Source: Thomasclavelia spiroformis
GTDB lineage: Bacteria > Bacillota_I > Bacilli_A > Erysipelotrichales > Coprobacillaceae
DNA length: 64,000 nucleotides
Strand: one strand, 5' to 3'
Assembly: GCF_018369555.1 (NCBI RefSeq)
Contig: NZ_JAGZCC010000002.1
Part shown: piece after piece, positions 19,341-40,804 of the stretch
Position numbering within the stretch: position 1 is the stretch's first letter
How the letters are laid out: every line of letters starts with the position of its first letter
Program-made: the position numbers and the translations under genes
Notes under the pieces: model-generated
Database searches by the model: none
Seen by the model: the letters and a program-made list of their open reading frames with translations, nothing else
Told to the model about the DNA's origin: nothing

Positions 19341-19645
19341 AAATAATTATAGAATCTTAAAAAAATATGTGTTATAATAGTTTTAGAAATAAGTAAATAC
19401 TAGGTTGTTAAATTTTTGACTATTATTTCATAGGTTTTTTTGTTGGTGTAGGTGTTGCTTTTGATATTAATAAGAGAAATATAGTTAAATAAATCGTGTA
19501 AGGATTATACTAGTATTTACTTTTATTTAATTTATTGATTTTATAAGTAGTTTAAAATAATTTGGTTTAGATAGGTTGGAAGAGTAATCTTTCAATTTTT
19601 TATTTTAATCACTGTAGTATTATTGTAAATAAATAACAGTTTATG

Positions 19646-19728
19646 TGACATTTGTCATATAAAAATGTTACATATCACACATTACTAATCAAACTAATAA
19701 TCATATAATAATCATGTAAGCGATTTCT
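19646..19728 (+). promoter_or_regulatory. fruA control region: GTGACATTTGTCATATAAAAATGTTACATATCACAC (19646-19680) shares the core TGTCATATAAAAAT with the PTS operator. Perfect -10 TATAAT at 19704-19709. Candidate cre TGTAAGCGATTTCT at 19715-19728.
   Basis: cre matches the TGWAANCGNTNWCA consensus at 13 of 14 positions and lies just downstream of the -10. Confidence 0.45.
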
Positions 19729-19747: not shown

Positions 19748-22700
19748 ATGATAAAGAAATTATTAAGTTTTGTATTAGTTTTTTCATTGTTTTTTACAAA
19801 CCTAACGTTTGTAAATGCATCTAATATGCCAGATGAAAAAACTAATGTTCCTGATGGAACATTTGAAAGCAAATTAGAAGCAAAAGAGTTATTTGACTTT
19901 GTTTCTAAGAGTAATGGTGAAGTTACATCAAATGAAGATGGTATAGTGTTGAGTAAAAATGCTGATGCTGATCATCATGCTTTATTAAATAAAGGAGATA
20001 AATACAAAAGCTTTATTTATGAAGGAGATGTAAAACTTATTGATGGAATTAGTGCAGGATTAGTAATAGGAGTTGCAGATCAAGAAAATGTTGCTAATTC
20101 GTGGTATGCGATTAATTTTAATACTGAAGAGACATTAAATCGTGCTCGATTATTTAAAGTAGAAAATGATGTTACAAATTACGCTTACATAACAAGTGAT
20201 GAAGCTAGTTTAATTGATTTTAGTGATACAGTTCATATGTATATTGAATTTGATGAAATAGGTAATTATGTTTTTAAGTTATCAAATAACGTTACTAATG
20301 AAGTTATTAAAACAGGTAAAGTTGATAATTGGAGTGGTGGATATATAGGATTATTGACATTTGATAGTAGTGCTATATTTAGTAATATTAAAATTACAGA
20401 TACAAGTAATTCTGATAATTTAAAGACAAACTTAGATGGTATTAAAGAAAATGATAATTATCGAATTAGTGATATTGGAATTACAGGAAATTCTAATGGT
20501 GTAAATGATGTGTTTTTGTTAAGTGAAACAGATGGAGATAATTTTGTTTATGAAGCAGATGTTAAGTTTAATGAACGTTGTGGTGCAGCATCATTAGTGT
20601 TTAGAGCAAGTGAAGATTTAAATAATAAAAGTATGTATGTAGCAAATATTAATGGTGCTAGCGGAGAAGTAAGATTATTTAAATTTGGACAAGATGACAA
20701 TTATGATTTAGCTAGATCACAGTTTATAGCATTAGATGAAAATGATGAGTATCATTTAAAAATAACTGTTATTGATAAACATATTGTTTATTATATCAAT
20801 GGTCAACTTGTAATAAATACTGCTGATTATACAATGAATGATCGTAATGAGGATTCTCATTATGGACAAAATGATGCTCTTACAAGTGGTAAATTTGGTT
20901 TACTTACTTGGAATGGCAATGTAACATATCAAAATATTGAATACACGCCTATAGATGATACTAATTCACCTCAATTAGATAATTTGAGTGTTGAAAGTAT
21001 TAATGGTAAAGTTGATAAACAAATTGCATTTTCTAAAGGTCAATATGTTTACATTACATATGTTACAAACAGTACTACAGCAGTAAGTTTAATTCCAGAA
21101 ATTAAAAATGATAGTGAAATTGTTGCGACTGATGAAAATGGAGAAATTGTCGATATTAATAATTTACCAGTTACCAAGGATTTACAAACTTATACATTAA
21201 CAGTAAGAAACGGAAATTCAAAAGTTTTATATCGAATCCGTGTTCATCGTATGCAAGTTGATGAATCATACTATAACGAAGATTATCGTGGTCAATATCA
21301 CTATTCCGTAAAAGATGGATGGGGTAATGATCCTAATGGAATGGTATATTATAAAGGAAAATATCATTTATTTTACCAATACTATGATTCACCAAATTGG
21401 GGACCAATGCATTGGGCTCATGCGACAAGTACAGATTTGATTCATTGGGAAGAACAGTCAATTCAATTTTATCCAGATGAATATGGAACAATGTATTCAG
21501 GATGTGCAGTAATTGCTAATCATGAAACAGCACCAGCAATATTTAACGAAGGTGAAGAAGGACTTGTATTCTTTATTACTTCTAATGGTGGTAATGGTGG
21601 CGATATTCAAAAAATTACTGCAGCATATAGTAAAGACGGTGAAACTTTCCATAAATATGATGAAGGAAAAGTCTTAATTAATTGGACAGATGATTCTTTA
21701 AAAAATACTGCATTTAGAGATCCAAAAGTATTTAGATATGAAAATAAATGGTTTATGGTAATCGCTGGAGGACCATTAAGAATATATTCATCAGATGATT
21801 TAGTTAATTGGCAAGTTGAATCAGTTTATGGAGATTTACATACAGAATGTCCGGATTTATATCCATTAGTAGTTAAAGATGAAAATAATCAAGAAACTGG
21901 CGAAGTTAAATGGGTTTTAGACCGTGGGGGAAGAAAATATAAAATAGGTGATTTTAAACAAGTTAATGGTAACTGGTCTTTTGTTCCTGATGAGCAATAT
22001 GCAAGTACTAATGCTGGTGGAATGGGAAATGAAGATAATGATGGAATCATGAACTTTGGTCCTGATTCATATGCAGCAATGACATATTATATGGGGGATT
22101 TTGGAACTGCAGATAATTTTAAAGCTCAAGATATTATTGCAATAAATTGGATGAATACTTGGGACAGTGGTTTTAATAATGCAATACCTAATGCTAATGG
22201 TAATACTATTTTTAACGGAACATTTAATTTACAATTAAAATTAGGAATCAAGAAGGATAGTTATGGGAAATATTATTTAACTCAAACACCAATTGATGAA
22301 TATAAAACATTAAGAGATGAAGCAAATAAAGTTGAATTAAATGACATTACTATTAATGAAACAAATAATCCATTAAATAATTTTAGTGGTGATAATTATG
22401 AAATTGTTGCAAATTTAAAACCAGATAGTACATGTAGTGAAGTAGGTTTTAAAGTTAGAACAGGTTATGATCAAGAAACAGTTATTAAATATAATCTAGA
22501 AAATAAACAGTTAACTATTGATCGTTTAAAATCAGGAGTTATCGTTGTTGAAGGTGAACGACTTAATGTATGTAGTCAAAATGTTGAATTGAATGCTGAT
22601 GGTTCAATTGATTTACATATTTATGTTGATCGCAGTTCTGTAGAAGTATTTACAAATGATTATACAGTTGCAGGAGCAATGCAAATTTTTGCTAGTCCAG

Positions 22701-24727
22701 TAAGTAAGGGTTTAAGTGTCTATAGTATTGATGGTAATGCTACTGGAAATATTACAATATATCCAATGAAAACAATTTGGACAGATAAATTAACACCAAC
22801 TAAACCTCTATCTGTAGGAATTGATAAAACTAATATTAATGGCTATGTAGGTGATGAATTTACATTAAATAGTTGGGTTTCACCAGCTGAATTATCTCAA
22901 GATTTAATTTATACAGTTGATAATAATGATGTTATTTCTTTAGAACAAGATGGTAGTCAAGCTGCATTAAAAGCATTGAAAGCTGGTGAGGCAACAATCA
23001 CTGTTGCAGCAAAACAAAATCCAAATATTACAAAAGAATGTCTTGTTCATATTTATGAAAATAATTTTAAAACAAATTTAAGTGATTTTGAAGCTGTAGC
23101 TGGTAACTGGTATGTTGATGATGAAACATATGTTGCATCTTATAATGACAACGGCTTCATGTTTGCAAATAAAATTAGTACAAATAAATTTAAATATGAA
23201 ATAGATGCTACATATCAAACAGGTATATTAAATTTTATTTTCCAATCACAAACAAAAAATGTATGGAATGGATGTTATTCATTACAATTAAATGGAAATA
23301 CCGTACGTTTGTTTGATTTTAAAGATGATTATACATTTACAAGTACAAATAACCTAGTAATAGCACCTGATAACAAATATCATATAGAAATTAATGTCGA
23401 TGGTAATAAAATTGTTGCTTTAGTAAATGGTGTAGAATATATAAATCATGTAATTAGTGAATCTGATCGTCAATATGATGAAGGTTATGTAGGTTTAGGA
23501 ATATATAATACAAATGCTAAATATCAAAATTTCTATATTACAACAGATACACCAATAACTCAAATAACATCTAAAATACCAGATTTATACCCAGTTATTA
23601 ATGCTGATTTAGAAGATATCAAAGCACTTTTACCAACAATGGTAACTGTTGCTGGAGATGATAATTTAAATAAAAAAGAAATGGCAGAAATTATGTGGGA
23701 TTTAGATATAATTGATGTTAATGTACCAGGTACTTATAGTGTAACAGGAACAATTGCAAATGGTGTTACAACAACTGTAAAAGTAATAACTCGTTCGAAT
23801 AAAGCGTTAGCTGATTTGGTGGCTAAAACATATAATGAAAAAGATTATACATCAAATAGCTATAAAGAATATTTATTAGCACTAGATAGTGCAAAAGAGG
23901 TATTGAATACTGATGATAGTAGTCAAAAAGAAATTGATACAGCATATTTAAATTTACAATTAGCTATTGAAAATTTAATTCCTATCAATAGTATTAATAA
24001 AACAGCTTTAAAGATTGCTCTAGATTTAGCAAATGCAATTACTGATAAAGATTTAGCTAATGTTGTCCCAGTAGTAGTTAATGAATTCAAACAAGCAAGA
24101 GATAAGGCTAATGAAGTATATAATGATGCAAATGCTAGTCAAGATGAAGTAGATGCAGCATTTGATCGACTTGCTAGTATTATGCAAAAATTAGAATTCT
24201 TCAAAGGAGATAAAACAGCCTTAAAAGCATTCATTGATAAAGTAAGTGATTTAGAAGGTGCTAAATATACAGAAGCTACATGGACACCATTTGAAACTGA
24301 GTTAAATGAAGCAATTGTTGTATATGAAGATGAAAATGCAATGCAAGAAGAAGTAAACAATGCATACAATGAATTAGTTACAGCCTTCTTGAAGCTAAGA
24401 TTAATTCCAGATAAGAGTTTATTAGAAGACTTAATTAATCAAGCTAATGGATTAAACAGTGCAAATTATACCAAAGCAACATTTGATGGCTTAACAAAAG
24501 CCTTAAATGAAGCTAAAGCAGTATTTGTTAATCCAAATGCAACACAAGTTGAAGTAGATAATGCAAAAGCTGAATTAGAAAAAGCAATGGCAAACTTACA
24601 AACAGTAAATAATGGTGATACAACTGTAAGTGTAAAAACAGGTGATGAAAGCTTAGTAGGAATGTTTGCAGGAATTACTTTATTAAGTATTGCTGGATAT
24701 GCATTGTTAAGAAGAAAAGAAGATTAA
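19748..24727 (+). CDS. fruA: Cell-wall-anchored GH32 beta-fructofuranosidase (fructanase/levanase/inulinase, FruA-like). Signal peptide, three ConA/LamG-like domains, GH32 catalytic and beta-sandwich domains, Big_2 domain, FIVAR repeats, SVKTGDES sorting signal.
   Basis: GH32 motifs WGNDPNG (nucleophile), FRDPKVF, ECPDLY. 1659 aa. The C-terminal 250 aa are about 80% identical to the GH92 C-terminus. Confidence 0.85.
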   Translation: MIKKLLSFVLVFSLFFTNLTFVNASNMPDEKTNVPDGTFESKLEAKELFDFVSKSNGEVTSNEDGIVLSKNADADHHALLNKGDKYKSFIYEGDVKLIDGISAGLVIGVADQENVANSWYAINFNTEETLNRARLFKVENDVTNYAYITSDEASLIDFSDTVHMYIEFDEIGNYVFKLSNNVTNEVIKTGKVDNWSGGYIGLLTFDSSAIFSNIKITDTSNSDNLKTNLDGIKENDNYRISDIGITGNSNGVNDVFLLSETDGDNFVYEADVKFNERCGAASLVFRASEDLNNKSMYVANINGASGEVRLFKFGQDDNYDLARSQFIALDENDEYHLKITVIDKHIVYYINGQLVINTADYTMNDRNEDSHYGQNDALTSGKFGLLTWNGNVTYQNIEYTPIDDTNSPQLDNLSVESINGKVDKQIAFSKGQYVYITYVTNSTTAVSLIPEIKNDSEIVATDENGEIVDINNLPVTKDLQTYTLTVRNGNSKVLYRIRVHRMQVDESYYNEDYRGQYHYSVKDGWGNDPNGMVYYKGKYHLFYQYYDSPNWGPMHWAHATSTDLIHWEEQSIQFYPDEYGTMYSGCAVIANHETAPAIFNEGEEGLVFFITSNGGNGGDIQKITAAYSKDGETFHKYDEGKVLINWTDDSLKNTAFRDPKVFRYENKWFMVIAGGPLRIYSSDDLVNWQVESVYGDLHTECPDLYPLVVKDENNQETGEVKWVLDRGGRKYKIGDFKQVNGNWSFVPDEQYASTNAGGMGNEDNDGIMNFGPDSYAAMTYYMGDFGTADNFKAQDIIAINWMNTWDSGFNNAIPNANGNTIFNGTFNLQLKLGIKKDSYGKYYLTQTPIDEYKTLRDEANKVELNDITINETNNPLNNFSGDNYEIVANLKPDSTCSEVGFKVRTGYDQETVIKYNLENKQLTIDRLKSGVIVVEGERLNVCSQNVELNADGSIDLHIYVDRSSVEVFTNDYTVAGAMQIFASPVSKGLSVYSIDGNATGNITIYPMKTIWTDKLTPTKPLSVGIDKTNINGYVGDEFTLNSWVSPAELSQDLIYTVDNNDVISLEQDGSQAALKALKAGEATITVAAKQNPNITKECLVHIYENNFKTNLSDFEAVAGNWYVDDETYVASYNDNGFMFANKISTNKFKYEIDATYQTGILNFIFQSQTKNVWNGCYSLQLNGNTVRLFDFKDDYTFTSTNNLVIAPDNKYHIEINVDGNKIVALVNGVEYINHVISESDRQYDEGYVGLGIYNTNAKYQNFYITTDTPITQITSKIPDLYPVINADLEDIKALLPTMVTVAGDDNLNKKEMAEIMWDLDIIDVNVPGTYSVTGTIANGVTTTVKVITRSNKALADLVAKTYNEKDYTSNSYKEYLLALDSAKEVLNTDDSSQKEIDTAYLNLQLAIENLIPINSINKTALKIALDLANAITDKDLANVVPVVVNEFKQARDKANEVYNDANASQDEVDAAFDRLASIMQKLEFFKGDKTALKAFIDKVSDLEGAKYTEATWTPFETELNEAIVVYEDENAMQEEVNNAYNELVTAFLKLRLIPDKSLLEDLINQANGLNSANYTKATFDGLTKALNEAKAVFVNPNATQVEVDNAKAELEKAMANLQTVNNGDTTVSVKTGDESLVGMFAGITLLSIAGYALLRRKED

Positions 24728-24745
24728 TAAAAATTAATATAATTG

Positions 24746-24786
24746 GATGTTTTCTTAATTGAAAGAAGACGTCCTTTTTTGATATT
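24746..24786 (+). terminator. Putative terminator GGATGTTTTCTT..AAGAAGACGTCC plus T6
   Basis: Imperfect 11-bp stem followed by TTTTTT. Confidence 0.4.
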
Positions 24787-24848
24787 TTGAATTATTAGTT
24801 TAATATTGTAAATAGTCATGATAAAATGATGGTATTAAAGGAGGAATA

Positions 24849-25802
24849 GTGTTGGGATTGAATAGAAAAATTTATTTATCAATTATAATTTTATTTGCTT
24901 TAATAATTTTTGTTATTGGCTATTTATTTTATGCTGTACCAATATCTAATCATAAAGTATTTGGGGTTACATATATGACGATGAATAATCCTTTTTATGA
25001 AATAATTAATAATGAGTTAGAGAAAAATATTGAGAAAAATGGAGATCGATTAATTACGTTAGATCCTCAATTAGATATTAATAAACAAAATGAACAGATT
25101 TATTCATTTATTGAACAAAAAGTAGATGGTATATTTATTAATCCAATTGATGCTAAAAAAATTGAGCCAGCTTTAAAAGCGGCTAAAAAAGCACATATTC
25201 CAATTATTACAGTTGATGCACCGGTTATTAATAAGGATTTAGTCAATTGTACAGTAGTTTCGAATAATTATAATGCGGGTGTACAATGTGCAAAAGATAT
25301 GATGAGTAAACTGAAAAGTGCCAATATAGTGTTATTAAAACATACAACTGCACTTTCTGCTAAAGAAAGAATAGATGGTTTTTTAGATACAATTGATGAT
25401 TATCCAGAGTATAAAATTATTAATCAAGGAGAATGTAAGGGACAATTGGAAAAAGCAATGCCGGTTATGAAAAGAATTTTAAAAGAGACACCGGAAGTTG
25501 ATGTTGTAATGGCATTAAATGATCCTAGTGCTTTAGGAGCGCTAGCGGCGTTAGAATCAATGGGATATAATGATGTCAGGGTATATGGAGTTGATGGGAC
25601 ACCGGATATTAAATCATTAATTGGAGAAAGTCCATTGGTAGCTGGAACAGTAGCGCAATCACCGATTTCAATAGGTAAGATAGCAGCAAAAAATATGTAT
25701 GATTTATTATCTGGTAAAGAAATTGGTTCAAATATTATAACTCCAGTAGAGCTTATTACTAAAGAGAATATCGCACAGTTTAATAAAACGGGGTGGCAAT
25801 AA
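24849..25802 (+). CDS. Membrane-anchored type I (RbsB/LacI-like) periplasmic sugar-binding protein; sensor SBP, LevQ/LevT-analogue
   Basis: GTG start with RBS AAGGAGGAA. N-terminal TM. Peripla_BP_1-like motifs. No partner ABC permease or ATPase nearby. Confidence 0.65.
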   Translation: MLGLNRKIYLSIIILFALIIFVIGYLFYAVPISNHKVFGVTYMTMNNPFYEIINNELEKNIEKNGDRLITLDPQLDINKQNEQIYSFIEQKVDGIFINPIDAKKIEPALKAAKKAHIPIITVDAPVINKDLVNCTVVSNNYNAGVQCAKDMMSKLKSANIVLLKHTTALSAKERIDGFLDTIDDYPEYKIINQGECKGQLEKAMPVMKRILKETPEVDVVMALNDPSALGALAALESMGYNDVRVYGVDGTPDIKSLIGESPLVAGTVAQSPISIGKIAAKNMYDLLSGKEIGSNIITPVELITKENIAQFNKTGWQ

Positions 25803-27109
25803 TGAATAAAAACTATTTTCAGTCTTTATCGTCAGTTAGATACTTAATGGTTTTATTGAATTTAATAATTATTGTATTTTATGGATTTGTTTTTTTGTTT
25901 ACTACAAAGTATATAATTACTAATCAGTTATCAAGAAATTTTTTGGATACTGTTAATAGTATTCCTAGAAATCCTTTTTTTGTGTTTTTTGTTTCGATTT
26001 CATTATATCTTATACTTGTTTTTATGATTTATTATCATAATGAAAATAAAATTATAAATAGTAAATTACATATTTTTTATAATATCATAGAGTTAGTTAT
26101 TTGTTTTGTTATAATTTATTTATTAAATATGAGTTATAATGGAATTATTTTATTGGTATTTAGTGATTGTATTTATCATTTTAAAAATGAAAAAACAAAA
26201 TGGTTTTTATTAGCAGTAGTAATAATATATTTAATTTCCAATTATGATATTTTCTCAATGTTTATTTCTATTCCTGATCCTCAGGCTTATTTTGAAGCTT
26301 GTGAAGCATCAATTACGGGGATGTTAATGGTAAGTAAAAATTTACTAGAGACATTAAATATTGTATTATTTGTTACTTCTACAGTGTTATATATTGCTGA
26401 TCAAATTCAAGAAAACGAAAATATCTCTAAAGAATTAGATATGATTAATCAGGTTAATCAAGAGTTACAAAATTATGCTGCTGTCACTGAAAAAATTGGC
26501 GAAAATAATGAAAGAAAAAGACTTGCACGTGAAATACACGATACTTTAGGACATGCATTAACAGGAATTGCGGCAGGAATTGATGCATGTATTGCAATGA
26601 TCGATATTAATCCTCAAGCAACTAAACAACAACTCCAGCTTGTTTCGAAAGTTGTTCGTCAAGGAATTAGTGATGTCCGTAATTCTTTAAATAAATTACG
26701 TCCTGGGGCTTTAGAGACTAATAGTTTCAAAGGGGCTATTGAAACTATGATTGATGAATTTGTAAATTTGAGTGATTTGGTTATTAATTTGGATTATCAA
26801 ATTGATAAACTTGATTTAGAAAACACTACTGAAGATATTTTATTTCGAATAATCCAAGAAAGTATAACTAATGCAATGCGTCATGGAAGGGCAAAATGTA
26901 TTAATATTGAAATTTTTGAACATGATAGTTTGCTATGTTTAAAAATAAAAGATAATGGAATTGGTTGTGAAGAAATTCATTATGGATTTGGTCTAAAGCA
27001 AATGGCAGAAAGAGTTGCGATTATTAATGGAGAAGTTACATTTGATGGACATGATGGTTTTTTAACAGAAGTTAAAATTCCAATAAAAAGAGGTGAAAGA
27101 TATGATTAA
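25802..27109 (+). CDS. Membrane histidine kinase, NarL/DesK-type (HisKA_3 plus HATPase), with about 6 N-terminal TM helices
   Basis: H-box EIHDTLGH. HATPase N and G boxes. Start ATG overlaps the SBP stop (TAATG). Confidence 0.75.
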   Translation: MNKNYFQSLSSVRYLMVLLNLIIIVFYGFVFLFTTKYIITNQLSRNFLDTVNSIPRNPFFVFFVSISLYLILVFMIYYHNENKIINSKLHIFYNIIELVICFVIIYLLNMSYNGIILLVFSDCIYHFKNEKTKWFLLAVVIIYLISNYDIFSMFISIPDPQAYFEACEASITGMLMVSKNLLETLNIVLFVTSTVLYIADQIQENENISKELDMINQVNQELQNYAAVTEKIGENNERKRLAREIHDTLGHALTGIAAGIDACIAMIDINPQATKQQLQLVSKVVRQGISDVRNSLNKLRPGALETNSFKGAIETMIDEFVNLSDLVINLDYQIDKLDLENTTEDILFRIIQESITNAMRHGRAKCINIEIFEHDSLLCLKIKDNGIGCEEIHYGFGLKQMAERVAIINGEVTFDGHDGFLTEVKIPIKRGERYD

Positions 27110-27776
27110 AGTTGTTGTAGCAGATGATCAGGAATTGATAAGAGAATCACTAAAAATTGTTTTAGGAACGCATGAAGATATTCAGGTTGTTAGTATTGCT
27201 GCTGATGGATTAGAAGTTTTAGATATTTTAAAAAGGGAAGCAGTTGATGTGATTTTAATGGATATTCGTATGCCACGGATGGATGGGGTTATTTGTACTA
27301 AAGCTGTTAAAGAACAGTATCCTAATACTAAAATTATTATTTTAACAACTTTTGATGATGATGATTTTGTATTTAGTGCTTTGAAATATGGTGCAAGTGG
27401 ATATTTGTTGAAAGGTGTGGGTATGGATGAGTTATATCAAGCAATTTTAACAGTTTATCGTGGCGGTGGAATGATTAATCCTAATATTGCTACAAAAGTT
27501 TTTGGAATGTTTTCTAAAATGACACAAAATAATTATTCTATTCAAGTTGATGAGACAAATATTGATGAAATTAGTAAACCGGAATGGAAAGTTATTCAGC
27601 AAGTTGGTTATGGTTTTTCAAACAAAGAAATTGCTCAAAAATTATATTTATCAGAAGGAACAGTTAGAAATTATTTAAGTTCAATTCTTTCCAAATTAAA
27701 TTTAAGAGATCGTACACAATTAGCAATTTGGGCTGTGCAAACTGGGCAGACAACAAAGGGTATTGATAATGAATAA
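27102..27776 (+). CDS. Response regulator, NarL/LuxR family (REC plus GerE HTH)
   Basis: VVVADDQ..D57-like DIRMP motif. C-terminal LuxR HTH (KEIAQKLYLSEGTVRNYLSSILSKL). Start set to the ATG at 27102 (RBS AGAGGTGA). Confidence 0.8.
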   Translation: MIKVVVADDQELIRESLKIVLGTHEDIQVVSIAADGLEVLDILKREAVDVILMDIRMPRMDGVICTKAVKEQYPNTKIIILTTFDDDDFVFSALKYGASGYLLKGVGMDELYQAILTVYRGGGMINPNIATKVFGMFSKMTQNNYSIQVDETNIDEISKPEWKVIQQVGYGFSNKEIAQKLYLSEGTVRNYLSSILSKLNLRDRTQLAIWAVQTGQTTKGIDNE

Positions 27777-29058
27777 AAAAATAATTAGTTTATTTATTTT
27801 AGTGATTTGTGTTGTTATAGCAGTTATTTATCGACCAGAAAAGATTACTATAAAATTAGGTGTTTTTTCTGGTAGTAATTGGGATGTTCCAAGTGGTGAA
27901 AGTAATCAGATTGTCGATAATGCAATTAAAATATTTGAAAAAGCTCATCCTAATGTCGATGTTGAATATGAAAGTGGTATTTTAAAAGCAGATTATTCAT
28001 CATGGTTATCAGATAAGATTTTAACTGGGGCTACGCCGGATGTTTATATTATTTTAGAAGAAGATTTCAGTTTATTAAATTCAATGGGGGCATTAAAAAA
28101 TCTTAACTCATATATGCTTAAAGACAAAAATTTCGATAAACAAGAATATTATAAAAGTGTTTTAGAAGCTGGAACGTATAATGGGTATCAATATGCATTA
28201 CCATATGAATGTGATCCAACCTTGATGTTTGTAAATAAGACACTGTTACAAAAAGAAGGAATTGAAATACCTGTTAATGATTGGACATTAGATGATTTTT
28301 ATAAGATATGTCAAAAAGTAACGCAAGATAGTAATAATGATGGAATTATTGATCAATATGGTTGCTATGATTATGATTGGTTGGATTCTATATATAGCCA
28401 TGGCATTAAAATATTTAATGATGAAGGAACTAAATGTGACTTAAGTCAAGATAACATAAAAGAATCAATATCGTTTGTTCAAAAGATAAATAATTTAAAT
28501 CAAGGACATATTGTTAGTAGTGATGAATTTGATAAAGGCCAGGTGGCTTTTTCACCAATGCCTCTTTCTCAGTATCGAACATATCAGCCATATCCTTGGA
28601 AAATAAAAAAATACTCACGTTTTGAATGGGATTGTGTAAAAATGCCTACACATAGTAAAAGTGTTGAAAATAGTGAGGTTTCAACTTTGCTAATGGGAAT
28701 TTCTTCACGTAGTAAGCATGATAGTTTAGCATGGGATTTGCTTAAAACTCTTACATATAATCAACAAAGTCAGCTTAAATTAGTTGAATGTTCTCAAGGC
28801 TTATCACCGTTAAAAACAGTTGTTGAATCAAAGACAACAATTGACTTATTAAAAGAAGAGTCCGGGGAAAGTCAAGTTAATTTAAATTTACTTAACGATG
28901 TGATGGAAAATACAACAAGTCATGGTAAATTTAAAAAATATGAATCGGCTCTAGAGCTTATTAATACAAGAGTAGATCAAATTATTTTAAATAATGATGA
29001 TTTAGATACTTCATTGACAAAATTACAAAAGGAATTGAATCAATATCTTAAAGAGTAG
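27763..29058 (+). CDS. Extracellular solute-binding protein family 1 (MalE-like), membrane-anchored; second sensor SBP
   Basis: N-terminal TM and SBP_bac_1-like sequence. Overlaps the RR gene by 14 nt. No cognate permease genes. Confidence 0.6.
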   Translation: MIMNKKIISLFILVICVVIAVIYRPEKITIKLGVFSGSNWDVPSGESNQIVDNAIKIFEKAHPNVDVEYESGILKADYSSWLSDKILTGATPDVYIILEEDFSLLNSMGALKNLNSYMLKDKNFDKQEYYKSVLEAGTYNGYQYALPYECDPTLMFVNKTLLQKEGIEIPVNDWTLDDFYKICQKVTQDSNNDGIIDQYGCYDYDWLDSIYSHGIKIFNDEGTKCDLSQDNIKESISFVQKINNLNQGHIVSSDEFDKGQVAFSPMPLSQYRTYQPYPWKIKKYSRFEWDCVKMPTHSKSVENSEVSTLLMGISSRSKHDSLAWDLLKTLTYNQQSQLKLVECSQGLSPLKTVVESKTTIDLLKEESGESQVNLNLLNDVMENTTSHGKFKKYESALELINTRVDQIILNNDDLDTSLTKLQKELNQYLKE

Positions 29059-29078
29059 CGCTAGCTACTTTTTTTTTG
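29055..29078 (+). terminator. Terminator AGTAGC-GCTA-GCTACT plus T9
   Basis: 6-bp stem, 4-nt loop, 9 T. Confidence 0.5.
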
Positions 29079-29133
29079 TGACAAATGTCATATAAAAATA
29101 TGACATTTCACAGATGGAATGTAAACGCTTAGA
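29078..29133 (+). promoter_or_regulatory. PTS operon control region: 34-bp near-palindrome GTGACAAATGTCATAT-AAAA-ATATGACATTTCAC (29078-29111), plus candidate cre TGTAAACGCTTAGA (29120-29133)
   Basis: Inverted repeat arms ATGTCATAT and ATATGACAT. The core TGTCATATAAAAAT is shared with the fruA upstream region and with 53146-53159. cre matches at 13 of 14 positions. Confidence 0.5.
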
Positions 29134-29174
29134 TGTTAAAATAAATGTGTCTTAAGAAGGAAGGGGGAAAGATA

Positions 29175-39960: not shown

Positions 39961-40389
39961 ATGATTAGAGCATTTAAAGAAAGTGACTTGTCCGCTATTA
40001 TGAAGATATGGCTTGATACAAATATCAAAACACACCACTTTATTTCTGAAGAATATTGGACAAATAATTATGACTTGGTAAAAGAAATGTTACCCAAGGC
40101 AGAAATATATGTGTATGAAGATGAGATTACAAATCGAATTGACGGATTTATCGGATTAACGAATAGTTATATTGCAGGGCTTTTTGTGAAGGATACTGCT
40201 CAATCGAAAGGAATTGGAAAACAATTATTAGACTATGCAAAAAGTATAAAATCAGAAATGAGTTTAAGTGTTTACCAAGAGAATATAGGTGCAGTACATT
40301 TTTATAAGCGTGAACAATTTCAAATTCAATCTAAGAGTGTTGATGATAACACAAATGTAAATGAGTTAATTATGACTTGGAACAAATAG
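39961..40389 (+). CDS. GNAT family N-acetyltransferase
   Basis: 142 aa. Acetyl-CoA motif QSKGIGKQLL. Confidence 0.7.
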   Translation: MIRAFKESDLSAIMKIWLDTNIKTHHFISEEYWTNNYDLVKEMLPKAEIYVYEDEITNRIDGFIGLTNSYIAGLFVKDTAQSKGIGKQLLDYAKSIKSEMSLSVYQENIGAVHFYKREQFQIQSKSVDDNTNVNELIMTWNK

Positions 40390-40804
40390 ACAACTTCCAG
40401 TTTATAGAGCAAATGATAAAAGAAAATTTGTAGTAATGACAAATGTTAATTTGCGTTGTTTGTAGCAACGGTGGTTTTGATATTTAATAGTTGTATCAAA
40501 ACAAAGAGGTACAAGTTATATTGAATGAAAATATTAAAAAATTATGGAAGGCAAAAGGATTATTACAAGAAACAAAACAATTACAAAAATTTCAATATGC
40601 AAAATTTATAAAGCTATAAGAATTTACTGTATATTATATCATTCTAGAGCATCTTGATAGCAAGAAAAAGGGGTATACTTTTATGAGCGTATGCCTTTTT
40701 GATTGGAAAAATTTATTAATTAACAATATCAAAAATCTATATTGTTTTTGTAAAAAAAAGGTTGAAAATGAATTTCAAACCTTAAAAAGTTATTTCGTTA
40801 CAAT

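Follow-up and report, generated by a model that had tools for sequence, protein, structure and literature searches.

NarL and NarP of Escherichia coli act at heptamers in a 7-2-7 arrangement, which are bound by a dimer of GerE-type helix-turn-helix (HTH) domains, a geometry of NarL-family dimers that is said to have been described by Darwin and co-workers in 1997. UhpA, a further NarL-family activator in E. coli, switches on the sugar-phosphate transporter gene uhpT from a strong upstream site and a weaker site by the -35 region. For Streptococcus mutans, Wen and Burne reportedly gave the dyad upstream of fruA in 2002 as ATGACA(TC)TGTCAT. The S. mutans system that acts on this gene, LevQRST, responds to fructose or mannose by activating fruA and levDEFG (Zeng, Das & Burne 2011, PMC3043104). 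The same paper, citing Zeng et al. 2006, states that LevR, once purified, bound both promoter regions (fruA and levD) in vitro and that activation requires all four Lev components; it also mentions cre sites at fruA (PMC3043104). A second paper, citing Wen & Burne 2002, places the fruA dyad at -72/-59 and describes it as required for expression (PMC9241797).

The DNA analysed here, a stretch of 64,000 nucleotides referred to below as the window, carries a locus of the same kind on its plus strand. It starts with a gene for a FruA-like secreted GH32 fructan hydrolase of 1659 aa (19748..24727; Pfam Glyco_hydro_32N/C, FIVAR and Big_4), followed by the sensor operon, whose first gene encodes a LevT-like membrane-anchored sugar-binding protein (24849..25802; Peripla_BP_4 by Pfam, with an N-terminal hydrophobic anchor). 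Next are the genes for a LevS-like histidine kinase (25793..27109; HisKA_3 and HATPase_c by Pfam, with a multi-pass membrane N-terminus), a LevR-like regulator of the NarL/FixJ family (27102..27776, ORF from 27093; receiver and GerE HTH by Pfam) and a LevQ-like membrane-anchored solute-binding protein (27763..29058; SBP_bac_1/8 by Pfam, with an N-terminal anchor). A mannose-type PTS operon then begins with a levD-like EIIA gene and continues with levEFG-like genes for EIIB, EIIC and EIID (29613..31814; Pfam). In translation the kinase has several hydrophobic segments and no large external domain, and it is 42% identical to its S. mutans counterpart. The regulator, which we propose as the protein that binds the boxes described below, is 67% identical to that of the S. 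mutans lev locus over 224 residues, and its nearest solved structures are LiaR/VraR, DesR, DevR and NarL. By NCBIfam similarity the kinase is UhpB-like, below the cut-off, and no curated or equivalog NCBIfam model scored above the cut-off for any of the four sensor components. Gene order and Pfam revealed no ABC permease or ATPase gene adjoining the binding-protein genes of the sensor cluster; as in LevQRST, a binding protein-kinase-regulator-binding protein cluster without a cognate ABC permease stands beside its target operon. The cluster proteins are 89-99% identical to those of T. cocleata.

Several further genes of the window deserve mention. The place that levX occupies in S. mutans is taken here by an 89-aa ORF (31829-32098) with a weak Rce1-like match. 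A gene for a Cof-type HAD sugar phosphatase (32095-32952) comes after the PTS operon, and a 568-aa ORF without an NCBIfam match (32954-34660) also lies after the PTS genes. The C-terminal FIVAR/Ig-like part of the GH32 protein has counterparts of 38-69% identity encoded at 5333-6244 and 63577-63996, probably in other surface proteins with the same anchoring or repeat module.

The sensor operon ends in an intrinsic terminator on the plus strand (29050..29077; stem 29050-29073 and a T-run), which was called once by the terminator scan against 0.0 in shuffles and is also present in the RNA fold. It is followed by the levD promoter. Box 1 (29078..29091) is a perfect 14-bp dyad, GTGACAAATGTCAT, with 7-2-7 geometry, which spans about -71 to -58 relative to the predicted transcription start. 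The dyad is kept in front of the EIIA genes of relatives and of S. mutans. Inverted half-sites 2 bp apart, next to a gene for a receiver plus GerE regulator, are what a dimer site of the NarL/FixJ family would present. Box 2 (29101..29116, plus strand) is degenerate; in it TGACATTTCACA (29101-29112) runs into CAGATG, its centre lies near -42.5 from the predicted start, and it overlaps the -35 region. It is the sole zero-mismatch match to TGACANNNNNCAGATG in the window. The -35-like hexamer ATGGAA (29114..29119, plus strand) is weak, agreeing with TTGACA at 3/6 positions, and is spaced by 17 bp from an extended -10, TGtTAAAAT (29134..29142, plus strand), from which a start at about 29149 is predicted. 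The promoter scan called no canonical sigma-70 promoter on the plus strand, and the missing canonical -35 fits the expectation for an activator-dependent promoter. The levD-like gene for PTS EIIA(Man) extends over 29175..29597 on the plus strand, with the ribosome-binding site (RBS) GGAAGGGGG at 29159-29167. Although the ORF opens at 29145, the true start is probably the ATG at 29175 (MKYVVLVSHGEFA...), because the ATG at 29145 has no RBS and lies upstream of the predicted transcription start, and because the Pfam EIIA domain starts only at residue 14 of the long ORF.

A promoter of like construction precedes the GH32 gene. Here box 1, GTGACATTTGTCAT (19645..19658), is again a perfect dyad at about -71 to -58 from the predicted start and is identical in T. 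cocleata. Box 2, TTACATATCACA (19668..19679, plus strand), stands 22 bp after box 1; it is weak, and is degraded further in T. cocleata. The promoter geometry gives a -35-like hexamer ATTACT (19681-19686) and a -10 TATAAT (19704..19709, plus strand) that begins 36 nt after the start of box 2, with a predicted transcription start at about 19716. The offset of 36 nt from box 2 to the -10 is the same at levD and at fruA. Dyads are found upstream of both the levD-like and the fruA-like gene, as in LevQRST; their placement at -71/-58, as well as the centre of box 2 near -42.5, depends on starts predicted from the conserved -10, and on these predicted starts box 2 would occupy a class-II-like activator position. 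The region upstream of the sensor operon (24728-24848) has only an extended -10 promoter (TGaTAAAAT) and no autoregulatory box. In some relatives, however, the sensor operon has the exact dyad about 100 bp in front of its first gene (L006 5745, L017 875 and L050 6484), implying autoregulation there.

Cre-like (CcpA) boxes accompany the regulator boxes in both promoters. At levD the sequence TGTAAACGCTTAGA (29120..29133) fills the spacer between -35 and -10 and differs by one mismatch from TGWAANCGNTNWCA, while the neighbouring inverted repeat itself does not match TGWAANCGNTNWCA; at fruA the box TGTAAGCGATTTCT (19715..19728), also with one mismatch, lies at about the predicted transcription start. 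One-mismatch matches to TGWAANCGNTNWCA are expected 4.5 times per window and are weak evidence alone. A cre-like sequence occupies the same -35/-10 spacer position in the levD promoters of Catenibacterium, Stoquefichus, Bulleidia and S. mutans, which, with the boxes inside both promoters of the window, suggests conserved catabolite repression.

A sequence-only reading of this DNA had seen in 29078-29111 a 34-bp near-perfect inverted repeat and had proposed it as the operator of the adjacent LuxR-type regulator, common to the GH32 gene. The repeat, GTGACAAATGTCATATAAAAATATGACATTTCAC, does exist, and was correctly placed between the terminator of the second binding-protein gene (SBP2) and the RBS of the PTS EIIA gene. 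Its complementary core is perfect (11 nt, a 4-nt loop and 11 nt; 29083-29093 / 29098-29108), and "near-perfect" is a fair description of the whole because the outer GTGA/TCAC pairs form only with a 2-nt bulge. A search for perfect inverted repeats (arms ≥11 nt, loops ≤8 nt) found 13 positions in the window, compared with 0.9 in dinucleotide shuffles; the repeat is therefore non-random, though such repeats are not rare in the window, where most of the others are terminator-like. What did not hold was its treatment as a single unit, since it is made of two adjoining boxes 22 bp apart. At that distance TGTCAT, the right half-site of box 1, is brought opposite ATGACA, the left half-site of box 2, and the 34-bp palindrome is thus a geometric by-product of their arrangement. 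It is absent from most relatives, which carry three boxes, and the extended complementarity is not conserved. The conserved putative functional unit is the 14-bp dyad RTGACAWWTGTCAY together with a degenerate promoter-proximal box, and not the 34-bp palindrome. Judged by its setting, a promoter whose -35 is poor, the element resembles the site of an activator and not a repressor-type operator.

An inverted repeat between two operons could also act as a nucleic-acid hairpin, that is, as a second terminator, an attenuator or an RNA-stability element between the sensor and PTS operons. The repeat comes directly after the terminator of the sensor operon, and the RNA fold of 29040-29125 yields two strong hairpins (-27.9 kcal/mol, z = -6.6), the second of which is the inverted repeat. 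Its stem, however, is AT-rich and is followed by CACAGAUGG with no U-tract, so that the G+C-rich stem and T-run of a Rho-independent terminator are both lacking, and the terminator scan called 29050-29073 only. Because a good terminator precedes it and the predicted levD start comes only after it, the repeat is probably barely transcribed. Nor is the long stem conserved, as the closest relative has a 23-bp insertion in the loop, most relatives have the three-box form and the fruA copy pairs poorly. Conservation instead affects the base identity of TGACA/TGTCA and the distance to the -10, with no compensatory changes, which is the signature of a protein site. Rfam covariance models gave no match at the gathering score anywhere in the window. 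We consider an RNA role for the repeat very improbable, and the LevR-type site is retained as the preferred interpretation.

The similarity between the levD and fruA upstream regions spans the full 34 bp (levD, GTGACAAATGTCATATAAAAATATGACATTTCACA; fruA, GTGACATTTGTCATATAAAAATGTTACATATCACA). As the earlier reading had noted, an exact second copy of the 14-mer TGTCATATAAAAAT precedes the GH32 gene (19653-19666). A third copy, which it had placed at 53146-53159, was not borne out: the sequence concerned lies at 53147-53160 and has one mismatch (TGTCATATAAAAAA), for which 0.53 matches are expected by chance. It is a lone half-site without a partner, 22 bp past the stop codon of a Cof-type phosphatase gene, and was set aside as within chance. 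A one-mismatch dyad at 40437-40448 (TGACAAATGTTA; 1.5 expected) was also rejected, as it lacks a proximal box and a -10 at the right offsets and falls past the end of the gene at 39961-40389. The surroundings of the 53-kb half-site form a stretch of 600 bp with no long ORF and no Rfam match (53126-53728), which contains a perfect 24-bp palindrome, GGGTACCTAAATATTTAGGTACCC, at 53244-53267 and an inverted repeat, GTGTCAAAAA...TTTTTGACAC, at 53274-53299, the latter terminator-like with a T-run after it on the minus strand.

With an AT-rich window, a 14-mer composed mostly of A/T and a third "copy" explained by chance, the repeat might be regarded as an accidental AT-rich palindrome or a generic UP-like promoter element with no specific function. 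The exact dyad TGACAWWTGTCA argues against this, as it occurs twice in the 64-kb window compared with 0.02 expected, at the levD and fruA promoters only. We extended the count to a comparison set of 80 loci carrying homologues of the second binding protein, one genome per species. The window and these 80 related loci (1.52 Mb) hold 52 exact dyads, 49 of which lie outside long ORFs even though long ORFs make up 86.5% of the sequence; the other three fall in spurious ORFs within GC-rich spacers between SBP2 and EIIA, so effectively all are intergenic. They keep fixed distances from a conserved -10, and the motif is conserved from Negativicutes to Streptococcus. The dyad counts and the fixed -10 distances effectively refute the chance reading.

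The genes behind these dyads are of a restricted kind. Most dyads lie 58-112 bp upstream of EIIA, 102 bp upstream of GH32 or about 90-215 bp upstream of a Peripla_BP_4-type gene, which is either an extra copy or the first gene of the sensor operon (L006, L017, L048 and L050). Pfam analysis of eight downstream genes returned a mannose-type PTS EIIB, an ABC ATPase, Peripla_BP_4 proteins and one Cof-type phosphatase. All downstream genes that were identified encode sugar transporters, GH32 enzymes or sugar phosphatases and adjoin the conserved binding protein-kinase-regulator-binding protein cluster. Upstream of GH32 genes, dyads with one mismatch were present in T. saccharogumia, a related MAG and Anaerostipes faecalis (L017, L018 and L031). 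The four-gene cluster was present in all 80 loci wherever the contig was long enough, usually with a PTS operon after it, although the co-occurrence of dyad and regulator is partly built into the sample because the loci were fetched via the sensor cluster. The targets of the dyad vary among loci (PTS, ABC transporter, GH32 and phosphatase), and the four-component cluster is their constant neighbour.

In many Lachnospiraceae the sensor cluster and dyad adjoin genes for ribose-type ABC transporters in place of the PTS. Dyads stand about 90-200 bp upstream of Peripla_BP_4 genes in eight Lachnospiraceae loci (L027, L039, L041, L055-L057, L067 and L078), and upstream of an ABC ATPase gene in L040. 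The promoters of L027, L039, L055, L056 and L067 have two boxes, with a GTTACA-type proximal box 22 bp after the dyad, as at fruA of the window. In Anaerostipes sp. 992a a Cof-type phosphatase gene (L042 6090-6983) has the exact dyad 81 bp in front of it. A phosphatase of sugar phosphates, which recalls SppA of S. mutans, may therefore belong to the regulon.

Many regulator families recognise palindromes of such a size, and the dyad could in principle be bound by another factor, such as a sugar repressor of the DeoR, LacI or GntR type or a global regulator encoded elsewhere. The locus sample is biased towards genomes with the sensor cluster, and fruA of S. mutans is also under the DeoR-type repressor SppR (PMC13454231). 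The boxes of SppR/GlcR, however, are ACTTA-type direct repeats, unlike the dyad (PMC13454231). In S. mutans, expression of fruA needs the dyad, which marks it as the site of an activator (PMC9241797), and the promoter regions in question are bound by LevR (PMC3043104). The target genes differ between loci while the four-component cluster stays, and Pfam and NCBIfam found no other regulator gene in the cluster of the window. The invariance of the dyad is paralleled by that of the regulator HTH, in which LSEGT(V/I)RNYLS(S/T)ILSKLNLRDRTQLAIWAVQTG is near-identical across nine taxa from Negativicutes to Streptococcus. The 7-2-7 geometry, moreover, fits dimers of the NarL family. Recognition by a different factor is hence improbable in our judgement, if somewhat less so than an RNA hairpin. 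With a probability of roughly 0.85, we take the element to be a LevR-type activator site, the cis-acting element through which the neighbouring NarL/LuxR-type regulator, itself orthologous to LevR of S. mutans, exerts its control. The earlier proposal of an operator for the neighbouring LuxR-type regulator, common to the GH32 gene, thereby gains strong comparative support and that of homology to S. mutans LevQRST, although its 34-bp unit and its site at 53146 were wrong.

Alignment of the regions upstream of EIIA brought out two conserved elements, the 14-bp dyad and a proximal TGACA-N5-CAGATG. The dyad has the consensus RTGACA-WW-TGTCAY over 20 unique sites, and in the proximal box TGACA and CAGATG hardly vary among 34 unique relatives. 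The motif TGnTAnnnT begins 33 nt after the start of the proximal box in 31/31 loci where it was found. The distance from the distal dyad to the proximal box falls into classes: 22-23 bp in five loci, the window included, 32 bp in one and 44-46 bp in 24, the last class having a third, degenerate box in between. This grammar stays the same in Erysipelotrichales, Lachnospiraceae, Oscillospiraceae-like genomes, Negativicutes and Enterococcus. Between the window (29092-29093) and T. cocleata (L001 11332-11354; protein identity about 90%) the difference is a clean 23-bp indel that corresponds exactly to the middle box, and box number thus seems to change by whole units. Two-box promoters were also seen in Catenibacterium and one Lachnospiraceae MAG. 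Occupancy of the proximal box by a full dimer is uncertain, because its right half, CAGATG, is unlike a TGTCA half-site.

From the observed sequence features, their conservation and spacing, and the orthology to the S. mutans system, we infer a scheme of binding, phosphorylation requirement, start sites, activation mechanism and inducer. A four-component sugar sensor would consist of the regulator, a histidine kinase in the membrane and two binding proteins anchored there. On sensing of extracellular fructose or mannose, a phosphorylated regulator dimer would settle on box 1 (7-2-7, centre at about -64.5), and a second dimer, probably cooperatively, on the degenerate box 2 two helical turns downstream (centre at about -42.5). 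As box 2 overlaps the poor -35, the bound regulator is likely to recruit RNA polymerase to a promoter that otherwise has an extended -10 alone. The same two-box module would drive the GH32 fructanase gene, giving a small fructan/fructose regulon of two promoters, and the cre-like box in each promoter probably adds catabolite repression.

The analysis provides a concrete candidate operator and promoter layout for a fructan/fructose locus of a gut Erysipelotrichaceae bacterium. The LevQRST circuit of S. mutans, usually cast as an oral-streptococcal peculiarity, appears to be widespread in gut Bacillota and to have a recognisable DNA signature. In uncultured gut species, sugar transporters and hydrolases that respond to extracellular fructose or mannose could be predicted from RTGACAWWTGTCAY at its fixed spacing from an extended -10. 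Our literature searches returned nothing relevant on the dyad sequence, the system or the operator outside streptococci. A bolder generalisation, to which we give rather little credence, is that the LevR-type grammar forms a pan-Bacillota code (one or more 7-2-7 dyads at intervals of 21-24 bp; a degenerate box near -42; an extended -10 whose offset is constant at 36 nt; and in many cases a cre inside the promoter) that has been re-wired to PTS, ABC, GH32 or phosphatase genes in different gut lineages and is undescribed outside S. mutans in the literature searched. If that were true, exact deletions of one box (22-23 bp), such as that in the window, may tune the induction threshold, and the 34-bp palindrome would be the scar of a one-box deletion that may permit a tighter tetramer of two dimers. 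The finding as such is expected from homology and raises no new question, and the cross-phylum grammar with its two- and three-box variants is a modest extension of a known system.

Comparison with the NarL/NarP sites reveals the same inverted heptamers 2 bp apart (tATGACA-AA-TGTCATa) and a regulator of the same family; the half-site, in contrast, is TGACA and not TACYYMT, and a sugar would be sensed via accessory binding proteins where NarL and NarP respond to nitrate. The proposed layout of a strong upstream site and a weak -35-proximal site is shared with UhpA, as is a kinase of UhpB-like type (below the NCBIfam cut-off), whereas the motif is another one and the accessory sensor of UhpA is the membrane protein UhpC in place of two solute-binding proteins. 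The cre-like sites are separate elements that adjoin the boxes in both promoters.

The lev locus of S. mutans itself (L081) was recovered by scanning metagenome contigs for a published UA159 primer, and three published UA159 primers match it exactly and in the right order. It has the gene order of the window, namely a binding protein, a HisKA_3 kinase, a NarL-type regulator, a second binding protein and mannose-type PTS EIIABCD, corresponding to levT-S-R-Q and then levDEFG, and a mannose-type PTS and a GH32 fructanase are the common targets, predicted ones in the case of the window. Its levD promoter reads TGACAAATGTCA, 21 bp, TGACATTTGTCA, 24 bp, TGACAAATGACACTG, a cre-like sequence and TAAAAT at offset 36. 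The TGACAWWTGTCA dyads, the proximal box and the -10 offset are those of the window, in a three-box version; the levD promoter of the window has two boxes 22 bp apart, while S. mutans and most relatives have three. The whole lev-like locus of Enterococcus pseudoavium (L004) is nearer to those of Erysipelotrichaceae than to those of streptococci, and no Streptococcus was among the best 120 matches to its LevQ-like protein, which suggests horizontal transfer of the locus. The dyads of the window are predicted at -71/-58, compared with the -72/-59 reported for S. mutans fruA (PMC9241797). Unlike in S. mutans, the fruA gene of the window directly precedes the sensor operon, and its host is not a streptococcus but a Thomasclavelia-like gut bacterium of the Erysipelotrichaceae. 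As far as sequence can test membership, the locus is one that displays every feature of a LevQRST regulon.
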